33,007 nucleotides of DNA from IMG/VR virus record IMGVR_UViG_2547132254_000003, positions 1 to 33,007 of that record; one strand, written 5' to 3'. The position numbers and the translations under genes are program-made. This stretch comes from a virus. Its lineage: Duplodnaviria > Heunggongvirae > Uroviricota > Caudoviricetes. Shown one piece after another: positions 3,891 to 16,788 of this stretch. The notes beneath the pieces were generated by a model that was given only the letters and a program-made list of their open reading frames with translations, searched no databases and was not told the origin of the DNA. How positions within the stretch are numbered: the first letter of the stretch is position 1; each line of letters opens with the position of its first letter.

Positions 3891-4013
3891 TTTGTTTTAA
3901 CCTCATTACAGATTTAAGGATGAACAAATCCCTGCCATTGCTGGCATATAAGAATCAAATCTGATGTATTCATTAAGCTGAATGTCGTATTGTGGCAGTT
4001 ATTTTATTGCTGC

Positions 4014-4235
4014 TCACCATGACTCTGCTTTTACAGGTAAACCATCACGACCAAGGAAGACTTTAATCATGGTTTCCTTAATACAGTGTTGTGTGGAAAA
4101 ATCACGAATATAGAGCCGTTGTTTTTTAATGTTGTTTACCGAAGCAATATATGTTCTTCCTTTATGAATAACATAATCACCGGGAGTCACGCACTGACGA
4201 GGAATCTCATCAGTTCCGAAGTGATGAGCAATCAT
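4014..4235 (-). CDS. Small protein (about 73 aa) directly downstream of DicF; possible Kil/DicB-position cell-division inhibitor
   Basis: ORF track gives 4014..4247; the internal ATG at 4235 has GGAG upstream. Function is inferred only from position downstream of DicF (as dicB is in Qin) and from a 73-aa size like Rac KilR; the protein does not match my recollection of DicB. Confidence 0.45.
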
Positions 4236-4414
4236 AATTATCTCCATTTTTACAAATGAACTTTGTTGATGCGGTGCCTGGTGCCTCCAGGTGACGTTAA
4301 CCAGTTAACAATTAACGCCGGATACAGAGAATCCACCCATAACACTGTTTTTGGTTTTAACTGTTCCGCGTGCGCTCAGCCGCATTCACCACATCACAAA
4401 ATTCACTTTAAAAA

Positions 4415-4467
4415 GGGCGGCAGAGCAGTCACGGAGTAAAACTGATACCGCCAAACGTCACCAGAAA
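4415..4467 (-). ncRNA. dicF: DicF-like small RNA (53 nt) followed by a T-run
   Basis: Reverse complement of 4415-4467 reads TTTCTGGTGACGTTTGGCGGTATCAGTTTTACTCCGTGACTGCTCTGCCGCCC followed by TTTTTA, which matches my memory of E. coli Qin DicF. Located in the leftward early operon. Confidence 0.65.
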
Positions 4468-4800
4468 ATTGATAACAGAGGGCGTTGCAGCGGGGTTGTC
4501 ACTTAAGCGTATGGTCAACCTGACAACCCGGTGTCCTCAACGGGGAAGGAATAACCCCGCCATACTTACCGCCGCGCCATTTCGCGGAGTGCCACAACCG
4601 GAAGCGCACGGTCGACGAAAATTTAACGACAGGCTATCTATGAACCAACAACTTCGCCGTGCGCTTTCGCGTTATGCCCTGACTTTTCAGGGAGATATCC
4701 TTTCAGTAAACTGTCAGTGCCGGATGCTCACCCGTGTCCGGCGCACGCACTCCACCTCACCCGTGGAGAACTCCTTAATTACTAACCCTCAGGAGGATGA

Positions 4801-5077
4801 AATGGGGTTTGATGTCAATGAAACTCTTAACTCTCTTATACGGAAAATTAATGATTTTGATAAAACACTACAGCATGCTGCGGCGCGTAGTGATATAACA
4901 TTGTTAGCAATTTCATACCTTGCATCTGCCATGAATAAAGATGAAACGGTACGAAAGAATCTCGTTGATTATATCGACTCGCTTCAGCCGGGCACTTTCA
5001 ACCCTGAGAGCTTCAATCATGAGAAAGAGCATGTTAAATCTGTAATTAATTCTCTTGTTTTGAATCAAAAGAATTGA
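4801..5077 (+). CDS. Hypothetical protein, about 92 aa, AT-rich, opposite in orientation to the early-left operon
   Basis: ATG at 4801 preceded by AGGAGG at optimal spacing. The upstream part of the 4469..5077 frame overlaps the DicF region, is GC-rich and has no good start, so only the 4801 start is called. 3' end overlaps the convergent gene 5046..5375. Confidence 0.4.
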
Positions 5078-5375
5078 TGCTTCTTGTTACGAAGCAATTT
5101 TCAAGGGGTTCTATCCGAATCCCTTTCTTTTCCATTAACAAGCCAAACCCCTTATTAATGATGTCCATTAGATCCAGGAAGTATTTTTCATGTAAATCCT
5201 GGTTATCAGAGAGCTGCTTCTCTTCGTACAGACCGATAAAGGCACGACGCACGTTACCGGATATAGTATCGATGGTTTCTTTTTCTACGGTACTCAGGTC
5301 AAGAGTCGCCAGTTGGGAACGAACTATATTCGCTGCCATTTCCTGGAATTGCATTGGTAAATCTTTAAATTCCAT
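5046..5375 (-). CDS. Hypothetical protein, 109 aa, early-left operon
   Basis: ATG at 5375 with GAGG 7 nt upstream; 22-nt gap from the stop of the upstream gene (5398), consistent with an operon. No recognisable motif. Confidence 0.55.
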   Translation of the reverse strand: MEFKDLPMQFQEMAANIVRSQLATLDLSTVEKETIDTISGNVRRAFIGLYEEKQLSDNQDLHEKYFLDLMDIINKGFGLLMEKKGIRIEPLENCFVTRSINSFDSKQEN

Positions 5376-5397
5376 TATTAGCCTCGTTGGTTAGCTA

Positions 5398-5616
5398 TTA
5401 ACGCGGGTATGTAATCATTCTGGCAATGCTTAATGCCGCTGCTTTTTCCAGCCTGGTGATATCCTGCTCCAGAGCGGACAGATTTTCAGCCTGCTTAGCC
5501 CTGGCTTCATTGGCCCATTTCAAATCCTGCGCTGCATTAATTTTCTGGCGCATCCACTCATAAAGTTCATCATCGGTATAGTCTGGCGCGATGATGACAG
5601 GTTCTCGTTTCTGCAT
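5398..5616 (-). CDS. Hypothetical protein, about 72 aa, early-left operon
   Basis: ORF track starts at GTG 5655; the internal ATG at 5616 has AAGGAG 5 nt upstream. Coiled-coil-like C-terminus. Confidence 0.5.
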   Translation of the reverse strand: MQKREPVIIAPDYTDDELYEWMRQKINAAQDLKWANEARAKQAENLSALEQDITRLEKAAALSIARMITYPR

Positions 5617-5687: not shown

Positions 5688-6044
5688 TTACTCGAGAGGA
5701 AATTGGTTATGAATACAATCAAGTTTTCTTGCCCAGAATGTGGTGGCGAAGTCTTTGACACATCCTTTAAGCCGCAGGGCTCTGACAGTTTCGCGGGAGC
5801 CATCTGCAAAAATTGTGGTCACCTTGTAACTGAAGATGAGTCCTCGCAGTTCGATGACGAAATCGTTGACAATATCTTCGGTGCACTCACCAGAGACTTT
5901 CTGAAATAAAGACGCATACCGCTTAGTTACCGCTCTGATAACTCTTACCTGTCCGGCAATGGCGCTGATGTCAATATAAAGCGCCATTGCTGCTTCTTTG
6001 CCGATCCCGTGATGCCTTCCATTCTGATGTTTGACTTCGCCCAC
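5688..6044 (-). CDS. Hypothetical protein, 118 aa; would be the first gene of the leftward early operon
   Basis: GTG start with AGAGGA upstream; operon context supports it, but it overlaps a plausible + strand zinc-ribbon ORF, so one of the two is probably not real. Confidence 0.3.
   Translation of the reverse strand: MGEVKHQNGRHHGIGKEAAMALYIDISAIAGQVRVIRAVTKRYASLFQKVSGECTEDIVNDFVIELRGLIFSYKVTTIFADGSRETVRALRLKGCVKDFATTFWARKLDCIHNQFPLE
5709..5909 (+). CDS. Small zinc-ribbon protein, about 66 aa (alternative to the overlapping - strand ORF)
   Basis: CPECGG ... CKNCGH four-cysteine motif with zinc-ribbon spacing; acidic C-terminus; GAGAGGA about 9 nt upstream of the ATG at 5709. Confidence 0.3.
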   Translation: MNTIKFSCPECGGEVFDTSFKPQGSDSFAGAICKNCGHLVTEDESSQFDDEIVDNIFGALTRDFLK

Positions 6045-6233
6045 TGAGAAATCCTCTGTTTCCCCTTAACGCCGGGGTAGCGGAACAAAAACCTGCTGCA
6101 TAGTTATTAAAGTTGAACCCTGCCGTCATGTTCTTACGCCTCGGGCTGGCTACTTAACCCCTGACCACTGCCTGGTAACTCGAAGTATTGCCCTGCATTC
6201 TGTGGGGCGGGGTGGGTTGGTATGAAAAGAAGG

Positions 6234-6271
6234 ATACCCATAGGTATTTAAAAAGTAAATACCCATGGGTA
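6234..6271. promoter_or_regulatory. Putative left operator (OL) palindromes
   Basis: ATACCCATAGGTAT (6234-6247) and TACCCATGGGTA (6260-6271) are palindromes with TACC/GGTA arms, located just downstream of the repressor gene's 3' end and upstream of the leftward operon. Confidence 0.35.
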
Positions 6272-6313
6272 AATTTTTGCGGTGTCTTAACTGGTGACTA
6301 GTTGTTTGGTGAG

Positions 6314-6733
6314 CTATGATGCGTTTTGTGCTTTCTTTTTACGGATTTCTTCGTAGATCATATTGTAATACTGTTTTTTCTCTTCAAGAGTTTTTAATAA
6401 TTTATCCGCTTCACTTTCTGGCAGTTCGTCTAAGAGATCTAAAAAAATACGTTGTCGTGGCGTTAGAACCCTTGTTTCATAACTGGAGGCTGTGTTCGTT
6501 GATGATGAAACGATACCATCCATCCATCCCCGGGGTAACCCAAAGGACTCTTCGATAATCTCCACCATATCATCAGCGATCCGTTTTTTTCCCTTTTTCC
6601 CCTCTGGGTACAACATTCTTGATACATAAGAAGGCTCGCGCCCGATCTTTCTGGCCACGTTAACCGCTTTACCATCGCATTTCTCATCACGAATTTTGAT
6701 GAGTTGCTGTCGTCTAAATTCATATTTGTCCAT
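6314..6733 (-). CDS. Prophage repressor (CI/RacR-like HTH protein), 139 aa
   Basis: Divergent from a Cro/YdaS-like gene; flanked on both sides by TACC-n-GGTA palindromes; N-terminal region has HTH-like character. Family from context and motif reading. Confidence 0.65.
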   Translation of the reverse strand: MDKYEFRRQQLIKIRDEKCDGKAVNVARKIGREPSYVSRMLYPEGKKGKKRIADDMVEIIEESFGLPRGWMDGIVSSSTNTASSYETRVLTPRQRIFLDLLDELPESEADKLLKTLEEKKQYYNMIYEEIRKKKAQNAS

Positions 6734-11335: not shown

Positions 11336-11514
11336 TTTTATGGATCACCTTTCTGATTGATTTTATATTGGCGAGGTAACGGGAGTTAAGTAGAATGGCT
11401 GCGGGTGCTTGAGGCTATCTGTCTCAGGCATGAACACCAAAGGCAGATAGAGAAAAGCCCCAGTTAACATTACGCGTCCTGCAAGACGCTTAACATTAAT
11501 CTGAGGCTCAATCT

Positions 11515-11727
11515 ATGAACGGCAAATCTAGGTTAGCCTCTTACGTGCCGAAAGGCAAGGAGAAGCAGGCTATGAAGCAGCAAAAGGCGATGTTAATCGC
11601 CCTGATCGTCATCTGTTTAACCGTCATTGTGACGGCACTGGTAACGAGGAAAGACCTCTGCGAGGTACGAATCCGAACCGGCCAGACGGAGGTCGCTGTC
11701 TTCACAGCTTACGAACCTGAGGAGTAA
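11515..11727 (+). CDS. mok: Mok-like in-frame leader ORF overlapping hok, 70 aa
   Basis: In-frame upstream extension of the Hok ORF with GAGG upstream, analogous to chromosomal mokC/hokC organisation. Confidence 0.45.
   Translation: MNGKSRLASYVPKGKEKQAMKQQKAMLIALIVICLTVIVTALVTRKDLCEVRIRTGQTEVAVFTAYEPEE
11572..11727 (+). CDS. hok: Hok/Gef-family type I toxin, 51 aa
   Basis: MKQQKAMLIALIVICLTVIVTALVTRKDLCEVRIRTGQTEVAVFTAYEPEE: single TM helix plus the conserved RKDLCEV-IRTGQTEVAVFTAYE core of Hok/Gef; AAGGAG upstream of the ATG. Confidence 0.8.
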   Translation: MKQQKAMLIALIVICLTVIVTALVTRKDLCEVRIRTGQTEVAVFTAYEPEE

Positions 11728-11799: not shown

Positions 11800-13128
11800 C
11801 TGATGAATCCCCTAATGATTTTTATCAAAATCATTAAGTTAAGGTAGATACACATCTTGTCATATGATCAAATGGTTTCGCCAAAAATCAATAATCAGAC
11901 AACAAAATGTGCGAACTCGATATTTTACACGACTCTCTTTACCAATTCTGCCCCGAATTACACTTAAAACGACTCAACTGCTTAACGTTGGCTTGCCACG
12001 CCTTACTTGACTGTAAAACTCTCACTCTTACCGAACTTGGCCGTAACCTGCCAACCAAAGCGAGAACAAAACATAACATCAAACGAATCGACCGATTGTT
12101 AGGTAATCGTCACCTCCACAAAGAGCGACTCGCTGTATACCGTTGGCATGCTAGCTTTATCTGTTCGGGCAATACGATGCCCATTGTACTTGTTGACTGG
12201 TCTGATATCCGTGAGCAAAAACGGCTTATGGTATTGCGAGCTTCAGTCGCACTACACGGTCGTTCTGTTACTCTTTATGAGAAAGCGTTCCCGCTTTCAG
12301 AGCAATGTTCAAAGAAAGCTCATGACCAATTTCTAGCCGACCTTGCGAGCATTCTACCGAGTAACACCACACCGCTCATTGTCAGTGATGCTGGCTTTAA
12401 AGTGCCATGGTATAAATCCGTTGAGAAGCTGGGTTGGTACTGGTTAAGTCGAGTAAGAGGAAAAGTACAATATGCAGACCTAGGAGCGGAAAACTGGAAA
12501 CCTATCAGCAACTTACATGATATGTCATCTAGTCACTCAAAGACTTTAGGCTATAAGAGGCTGACTAAAAGCAATCCAATCTCATGCCAAATTCTATTGT
12601 ATAAATCTCGCTCTAAAGGCCGAAAAAATCAGCGCTCGACACGGACTCATTGTCACCACCCGTCACCTAAAATCTACTCAGCGTCGGCAAAGGAGCCATG
12701 GATTCTAGCAACTAACTTACCTGTTGAAATTCGAACACCCAAACAACTTGTTAATATCTATTCGAAGCGAATGCAGATTGAAGAAACCTTCCGAGACTTG
12801 AAAAGTCCTGCCTACGGACTAGGCCTACGCCATAGCCGAACGAGCAGCTCAGAGCGTTTTGATATCATGCTGCTAATCGCCCTGATGCTTCAACTAACAT
12901 GTTGGCTTGCGGGCGTTCATGCTCAGAAACAAGGTTGGGACAAGCACTTCCAGGCTAACACAGTCAGAAATCGAAACGTACTCTCAACAGTTCGCTTAGG
13001 CATGGAAGTTTTGCGGCATTCTGGCTACACAATAACAAGGGAAGACTCACTCGTGGCTGCAACCCTGCTTACTCAAAATCTATTCACACATGGTTACGTT
13101 TTGGGGAAATTATGAGGGGATCTCTCAG
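11800..13128 (+). mobile_element. IS10 (IS4 family), 1329 bp, intact, with terminal inverted repeats
   Basis: Left end CTGATGAATCCCCTAATGATTTT (IS10 outside end), right end reverse complement CTGAGAGATCCCCTCATAATTTCCCC (inside end); length 1329 bp; flanked by a perfect 9-bp direct repeat. Confidence 0.9.
11907..13115 (+). CDS. IS10 transposase, 402 aa
   Basis: Full-length ORF, MCELDILHDSLYQFCPELHLKRLN... matching my recollection of IS10/Tn10 transposase almost residue for residue; no frameshift or stop. Confidence 0.9.
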   Translation: MCELDILHDSLYQFCPELHLKRLNCLTLACHALLDCKTLTLTELGRNLPTKARTKHNIKRIDRLLGNRHLHKERLAVYRWHASFICSGNTMPIVLVDWSDIREQKRLMVLRASVALHGRSVTLYEKAFPLSEQCSKKAHDQFLADLASILPSNTTPLIVSDAGFKVPWYKSVEKLGWYWLSRVRGKVQYADLGAENWKPISNLHDMSSSHSKTLGYKRLTKSNPISCQILLYKSRSKGRKNQRSTRTHCHHPSPKIYSASAKEPWILATNLPVEIRTPKQLVNIYSKRMQIEETFRDLKSPAYGLGLRHSRTSSSERFDIMLLIALMLQLTCWLAGVHAQKQGWDKHFQANTVRNRNVLSTVRLGMEVLRHSGYTITREDSLVAATLLTQNLFTHGYVLGKL

Positions 13129-16478: not shown

Positions 16479-16554
16479 GGCCCTTTAGCTCAGTGGTGAG
16501 AGCGAGCGACTCATAATCGCCAGGTCGCTGGTTCAAATCCAGCAAGGGCCACCA
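16479..16554 (+). tRNA. tRNA with anticodon CAU, Ile2 (lysidine)-like, 76 nt, CCA encoded
   Basis: Cloverleaf folds by eye; anticodon loop CUCAUAA; close to my memory of E. coli ileX. Ile versus Met cannot be decided from the anticodon alone. Confidence 0.75.
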
Positions 16555-16555
16555 G

Positions 16556-16632
16556 CCGCCACTAGCTCATCAGGAAAGAGCGTCAACCCTTTAAGTTGAG
16601 TGTGCGAGGTTCGAGTCCCCGGTGGCGGTCCA
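16556..16632 (+). tRNA. tRNA-like gene, 77 nt, noncanonical anticodon loop; identity uncertain
   Basis: All stems pair except one A-C mismatch in the T-stem; anticodon loop CCUUUAA has C at position 33 (normally U), giving nominal anticodon UUU; begins with C1-G72. Confidence 0.5.
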
Positions 16633-16634
16633 GT

Positions 16635-16710
<76 letters not shown>

Positions 16711-16713
16711 TAT

Positions 16714-16788
<75 letters not shown>

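Follow-up and report, generated by a model that had tools for sequence, protein, structure and literature searches.

The small RNA DicF belongs to the dicBF operon of the Qin prophage of Escherichia coli K-12. It is excised from a polycistronic transcript that starts at dicBp, no internal promoter having been detected, and RNase III and RNase E set the 5' ends of a 190-nt species and of the 53-nt DicF, respectively (PMC10448788). Two routes lead to the 3' end: intrinsic termination yields the 53-nt form, and transcripts that read through are cut by RNase III to give 72 nt (PMC5069750, PMC9438474). DicB confers phage protection via ManYZ (PMC10448788). In the Rac prophage of the same strain, KilR inhibits FtsZ (PMC10798246). 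KilS, a verified Hfq-associated sRNA, derives from the kilR 5' UTR; its reported RIL-seq partner is yncL, not ftsZ, and DicF is unmentioned in the paper on KilS (PMC8175672).

We analysed a stretch of 33,007 nucleotides of a caudoviricete genome (IMG/VR record IMGVR_UViG_2547132254_000003), referred to below as the window. Very probably, it contains a division-blocking module of the leftward early operon of a lambdoid prophage, in which an exact DicF copy is combined with a Kil protein of the KilR family instead of dicB. The first-pass annotation of the window had recognised a DicF homologue on the minus strand, a small downstream protein other than DicB and a possible DicF precursor upstream. 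This reading is right in all three parts and the finding is real; the biology concerned is already known. Features of the region are listed in Table 1. The analyses described here establish the identities of DicF, Kil and the RNA around them, show that both are conserved and predict the helices.

Table 1. Features of the dicF-kil region, in window coordinates unless stated otherwise
Feature	Position	Strand	Basis or remark
Exonuclease gene downstream of kil, 823 aa	1419..3890	-	5' end matches Qin ydfE pseudogene; domain matches
kil, 73-aa FtsZ inhibitor of KilR family	4014..4235	-	NF008465, PHROG 294, KilR identity, dN/dS
Structured leader	4236..4414	-	fold, conservation across loci
U-tail (TTTTT) of intrinsic terminator ending 53-nt DicF	4414-4410	-	sequence and fold; doubles as start of 5' arm of leader helix
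DicF sRNA, 53-nt form	4415..4467	-	Rfam RF00039 and 53/53 identity to K-12 dicF
DicF terminator hairpin	~4452-4416	-	
DicF seed	4467-4453	-	
DicF precursor, homologue of K-12 ydfC-dicF untranslated region	4468..4787	-	~97% identity to Qin
Insertion relative to K-12 Qin, 590 nt, between ydfC and DicF precursor	4788..5377		BLAST gap; two convergent, slightly overlapping ORFs
Insert ORF, 91 aa, orphan	4802-5077	+	AGGAGG Shine-Dalgarno; homologues in E. coli only; antisense to DicF operon
Insert ORF, 109 aa	5046-5375	-	PHROG 6937, function unassigned
ydfC homologue, upstream gene of dicBF-type operon	5398..5616	-	Qin identity, PHROG 1744, RefSeq ydfC
Qin map, ydfC and next 20 nt	5616-5378		96% identity
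Qin map, segment with no Qin counterpart	5377-4788		590 nt
Qin map, ydfC-dicF untranslated region, dicF and dicF-dicB spacer	4787-4255		97.4% identity; stops 15 nt before dicB ATG
Qin map, kil replacing dicB and ydfD	4254-3976		
Qin map, ydfE start	3975-3802		90% identity; here start of 823-aa exonuclease
KilS, sRNA annotated before kilR	6406-6503 of locus L003 (K-12 Rac)	-	diverged positional DicF homologue

The Rfam covariance search proposed in the first-pass annotation (cmscan, whole window) returned a full-length DicF match well over the gathering score. Model RF00039 covers 4466-4415 on the minus strand with 76.7 bits (gathering score 48, E = 1.9e-15, model positions 1-52 of 52). Alignment with the Qin dicF region, likewise proposed there, shows that 4467-4415 is identical to K-12 dicF (NC_000913.3 1649382-1649434) at all 53 positions, unpaired seed included, within a segment (4255-4787) of 97.4% identity. 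The coordinates, strand, length and following T-run given for DicF were thus all right. Single-stranded pairing regions of this DicF are those of the experimentally studied K-12 DicF. At the nucleotide level, it is an identical copy of the textbook sRNA and nothing new.

DicF has the repressor gene (6314-6733) on one side and the genes for exonuclease, a xis-like protein and integrase on the other, and it shares their strand, which bears out its placement in the early-left operon. The position of kil in this operon, upstream of exonuclease and recombination genes, is the same as in Rac, two Stx phages, phage Evi and a Salmonella prophage.

The small protein encoded downstream of DicF had been thought not to be DicB, and BLASTP agrees: no alignment of the 73-aa sequence to K-12 DicB (62 aa) was obtained at E <= 100. 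There was also no match to a DicB family in Pfam, NCBIfam or PHROGs. DicB is therefore ruled out as identity of this ORF. The guess that it might be a different division inhibitor turned out to be correct, since the protein is a member of the KilR family. Its match to NCBIfam NF008465 "FtsZ inhibitor protein" extends over residues 1-73 of 73 with 140 bits (cut-off 92), that to PHROG 294 "Kil protein for bacterial septation inhibition" has E = 7.9e-33, and its identity to K-12 Rac KilR amounts to 81%. Precomputed PF27398 matches are present on all Kil homologues. A GGAG motif is located 6 nt upstream of the kil ATG; a 77-aa alternative reading starts from an upstream ATG, and the 73-aa start agrees with K-12 KilR and with RefSeq. 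In RefSeq, the product name of kil is "cell division protein FtsZ", although it is an inhibitor of FtsZ.

The first-pass annotation would have given up its reading had the ORF not been conserved as coding. Comparison with four relatives (Rac, strain A8 and two Stx phages) gave kil dN/dS of 0.07-0.17 at dS of 0.7-0.9, which indicates purifying selection; over all ten pairs, dN/dS is 0.07-0.23 and dS 0.33-1.03. An alignment of 16 Kil sequences contains 28 invariant columns. The family is restricted to Enterobacteriaceae, with identities of at least 64%. No sequence relative of Kil was found in PDB. Its AlphaFold (AF2) model is a six-stranded small beta-barrel with pLDDT of 82.7, and a Foldseek search against PDB gave no clue to the mode of action, yielding only generic small beta-barrels at E >= 0.04. 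By analogy with the 81%-identical homologue, from which the function is carried over, Kil would block division via FtsZ.

The arrangement of the region can be read against K-12 Qin segment by segment (Table 1). By its sequence, the locus is a recombinant of known prophage modules, a mosaic of Qin-type operon with dicB-ydfD swapped for kil. From ~4273 to the kil ATG, the window is of Rac/A8 type and not of Qin type; the crossover therefore falls within a spacer block common to both types, in the strongly conserved leader. The 590-nt insertion holds a terminator-like hairpin (5103-5125, plus strand) in addition to its two ORFs, neither of which has a match among defence systems in PADLOC. RefSeq annotates a 145-aa CDS on the plus strand (4640-5077) which is probably over-extended: its first 54 codons run through the DicF precursor, and Qin has the segment 4640-4787 but lacks the body of the ORF. 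Together with the AGGAGG preceding 4802, this suggests that the plus-strand ORF probably starts at 4802.

Further observations concern neighbouring genes. The 823-aa exonuclease comprises an exonuclease VIII-like middle part (aa 444-625) and, at its C-terminus, a 3'-5' exonuclease domain of Rv2179c type (PF16473, aa 642-813). With 284.5 bits, the whole protein stays far below the ExoVIII cut-off of 1269 and is hence no canonical RecE. A 68-aa CxxC zinc-binding ORF of the ECs_2282 family (5703-5909, plus strand; NCBIfam NF047912, 57 bits, cut-off 37) is antisense in the early-left region and occupies the place of ydfA/ydfB in Qin.

The stretch upstream of DicF had been described as GC-rich over ~330 nt (4470-4800). 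The enrichment exists and is mild only, G+C being 54.7% as compared with 49.4% window-wide. The proposal that this stretch holds the DicF precursor with its processing sites was well founded, as it is near-identical to the K-12 region in which the cuts were mapped (PMC10448788). The BLAST alignment to K-12 Qin runs over 533 nt (4255-4787) and takes in the upstream stretch, DicF and the greater part of the spacer after it; the Qin counterpart of the upstream stretch is a long untranslated region (PMC5069750). The precursor folds with z = -3.96, none of 100 shuffled sequences being as stable, and its core is conserved in 6 of 7 loci aligned. Cleavage sites were mapped experimentally in K-12 only, and their positions in the window are set by homology and distance. 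In this way, the RNase E cut would fall at 4467/4468, and the RNase III cut generating the 190-nt species near 4599-4604, within a predicted duplex GCGCACGGCGA : UCGACCGUGCGC. A lambda-like nut/boxB site in the precursor (CCCUGAAAAGUCAGGG) was also considered and set aside, its hairpin not being kept in Qin.

Between DicF and kil lies a leader with strong folding potential (z = -3.87; 0 of 200 shuffles as stable). It contains a predicted long-range helix, in which the U-tail and the next 20 nt (4414-4392) pair with 4248-4271, just before the kil ribosome-binding site. This helix is kept in all eight loci compared. Its support consists of invariance and wobble changes; double compensatory changes occur at only 3 of 61 pairs, with a covariation term of -0.78 kcal/mol. 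The published 3' end of 72-nt DicF, formed by RNase III (PMC5069750, PMC9438474), maps by distance to 4396, in the middle of the helix. We infer that RNase III cleavage at this position would part DicF from a kil mRNA with short leader, as for dicB.

Parts of the sRNA-leader unit differ greatly in their conservation. Two flanking blocks of the leader are 87-100% identical to the window in all seven other loci. In the four loci lacking DicF, identity to the window amounts to 26-36% for the central part of the leader, 32-62% for the sRNA seed and 58-70% for the terminator hairpin. Arms of the hairpin vary among loci, yet their pairing is kept as judged by eye; counts on the consensus fold show wobble changes and no double ones. 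Conservation of the leader blocks exceeds that of the sRNA seed and of kil synonymous sites (dS 0.7-0.9).

Part of the leader bears a misleading label in RefSeq, which lists 4262-4345 (minus strand) as a partial "DicB" pseudogene. We reject it as a gene remnant: the segment belongs to the spacer that, in K-12, comes before the dicB ATG, and other loci have this sequence in front of kil. A 1-nt difference in Qin brings the frame of 4262-4345 in line with dicB, and this would explain over-extended DicB models.

Elsewhere in the prophage, a hok/sok-type locus is found at 11403-11577 (plus strand; sok, 110 bits). It is adjoined by an IS10 end with RNA-OUT at 11845-11914 (minus strand, 97.3 bits), and a 402-aa ORF (11907-13115, plus strand) is presumably the transposase of an IS10 inserted in the prophage. 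A cluster of four tRNA genes, Met(CAT), Lys(TTT), Thr(TGT) and Gly(TCC), occupies 16479-16788 (plus strand). The ORFs downstream of it are taken to be lysis genes from their position and size only.

The following course of events is proposed for the module; transcription, cleavage sites, Hfq binding, targets and FtsZ inhibition are transferred in it from K-12 experiments on identical or homologous sequences. After relief of repression, leftward transcription would cross ydfC and then the 590-nt insertion before reaching the long untranslated region. RNase III would cut the duplex ~135 nt upstream of DicF, and RNase E would make the mature 5' end at 4467. The DicF hairpin and U-tail would stop the majority of transcripts and so yield the 53-nt DicF; this would bind Hfq, pair with ftsZ mRNA and block its translation, with xylR, pykA and manX as further targets. 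Read-through transcripts would bear the conserved leader, whose 5' end, including the U-tail, is predicted to pair just before the kil ribosome-binding site. RNase III cleavage of this helix would then release 72-nt DicF and a short-leadered kil mRNA, and the Kil protein made from it would block assembly of the FtsZ ring. FtsZ would thereby be struck twice, in its synthesis by DicF and in its assembly by Kil. Read-through could be reduced by the 590-nt insertion, which places a convergent ORF on the plus strand and weak terminator-like hairpins ahead of DicF.

Three other explanations were weighed against this model. According to the null hypothesis, the DicF match is due to chance or to likeness of terminators only, and the downstream ORF is no gene. 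We give it practically no credence: the E-value of 1.9e-15 and the identity at 53 of 53 positions, unpaired seed included, are at variance with it, as are the kil dN/dS of 0.07-0.17 and the family matches over curated cut-offs. Chance as source of the DicF match is excluded. Alternatively, the module might be a silent relic of a defective prophage, with the operon permanently repressed or terminated and little DicF or Kil made. The presence of IS10 (RNA-OUT at 11845-11914, transposase ORF at 11907-13115) is in its favour, and the prophage may be defective for this reason. A consensus scan of 6050-6310 recognised no leftward early promoter, and only 28 nt within this interval match the leader of Qin dicBp. 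Moreover, K-12 dicBp is repressed under standard conditions (PMC10448788), and kilR is expressed solely by read-through when the termination factor NusG is repressed (PMC10798246). However, kil is intact, as are DicF and the leader, and it evolves under purifying selection; the lambdoid gene set of the window is near-complete, and DicF of the defective Qin prophage still builds up in stationary phase (PMC10448788). A silent relic is considered unlikely.

The remaining explanation concerns the leader, which could be more than a cis element for kil, namely a separate trans-acting sRNA of STnc100/PasD type, released by RNase III from 4236-4414. The STnc100 model (Rfam RF02076) spans the whole spacer (4228-4413, minus strand) with 37.9 bits and E = 2.8e-6 in a 1.6-kb search, and it matches the equivalent spacers of the seven other loci with 28-34 bits. 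The greater conservation of the leader blocks relative to sRNA seed and kil synonymous sites points in the same direction, and STnc100 and PasD are related prophage sRNAs (bioRxiv 10.64898/2026.05.13.724894). On the other hand, none of the loci reaches the gathering score of 47, so that the leader resembles STnc100 and cannot be filed as its member. Canonical copies of STnc100 have another location, in the late region after stx2 (PMC12370729). The leader has no terminator of its own and continues straight into the kil ribosome-binding site, and we found no literature describing a stable RNA made from the dicF-dicB spacer of K-12. We consider a trans-acting leader RNA quite unlikely, and the division-blocking module with a leader acting in cis is retained as the preferred reading.

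Distribution of the arrangement was determined in 5426 complete E. coli genomes. The junction of dicF to dicB is present in 3950 of them, while DicF, together with 90 nt of its precursor, is joined to kil in 148 (~3%). The Rac-type junction of sRNA to kilR (~84% identity) occurs in ~1700 more, a figure estimated as 1840 genomes minus the 148. The 1.5-kb region recurs at 99.9% identity in several RefSeq genomes, which have kil annotated; among the RefSeq genomes sampled, no feature is listed under matches that cover DicF and spacer only. DicF followed by kil is consequently a minority arrangement, already contained in more than 100 public E. coli genomes. No paper on it was found in a literature search that did not extend to Melson and Kendall 2019 and Faubladier and Bouche 1994.

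Alignment of the eight loci reveals a common unit of sRNA, leader and ORF, whose parts diverge at very different rates. About four types of sRNA seed can be distinguished (DicF, KilS-like, A8 type and 75/02 type), and the leader is followed by either of two unrelated division inhibitors, DicB or Kil. The order sRNA-leader-kil is common to Rac (KilS-kilR), phage Evi, two Stx phages and the Salmonella prophage. It is conceivable, if on balance doubtful, that sRNA, leader and small toxic ORF constitute a modular cassette system of enterobacterial lambdoid prophages. Its parts would be swapped by recombination within the ultra-conserved leader, distantly related to STnc100, and the leader would be a functional RNA, an RNase III-gated switch coupling release of the sRNA to translation of the inhibitor. 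We found no description of such a system in the literature, and the older work of Faubladier and Bouche 1994 may cover dicF-like sequences in other prophages.

The chief value of these results lies in the right annotation of the locus, in which DicF was missed, Kil mislabelled and the leader called a false "DicB pseudogene". As the mosaic illustrates, one sRNA can have either DicB or Kil as its partner, two division inhibitors that are not related to each other. The exchange of DicB for Kil presumably entails loss of ManYZ-based phage protection, while DicF and a second block of division stay. The only possible further lead is the conserved leader, with the apparent exchange of seed and inhibitor gene around it.

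Among known systems, the K-12 Qin dicBF operon (ydfA-ydfB-ydfC-dicF-dicB-ydfD-ydfE) shares with the window an identical DicF, ydfC at 96% and the start of the exonuclease, 90% identical to ydfE. Untranslated region, DicF and spacer, the latter to within 15 nt of the dicB ATG, are alike at 97.4% over 533 nt. In contrast to Qin, the window carries kil (3976-4254) for dicB-ydfD, the 590-nt two-ORF insertion, and a ydfA/ydfB region and an immunity region of another type.

K-12 Rac displays the same order of sRNA, conserved leader, kil and recombination genes. Its Kil is 81% identical, and the 3' leader block up to the kil ATG is near-identical to the window. KilS occupies the position of the long, RNase III-type form of DicF, and its start corresponds to the 3' arm of the stem cut by RNase III. 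Both arms of its hairpin differ from the window and, by eye, can still pair. In contrast, the Rac sRNA has its own single-stranded seed, ~32% identical to the window, its score on the DicF model (39.1 bits) is below the gathering score of 48, and a ~115-nt segment of the DicF precursor is absent from Rac.

In the isolated Escherichia phage Evi (LR597642.1), DicF (76.4 bits), leader and Kil are arranged as in the window, and an exonuclease of like kind comes next; Evi differs in one DicF substitution and in the genes upstream of the precursor, and only 63% of the 1.5-kb query is covered. In a Salmonella prophage, a DicF-family sRNA scoring 49.3 bits, just over the threshold, precedes kilR. The Kil peptide of phage lambda, likewise a small product of the leftward early operon, blocks assembly of FtsZ; it is probably shorter and is not known to be related in sequence. 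Its likeness to Kil of the window is a functional analogy only.
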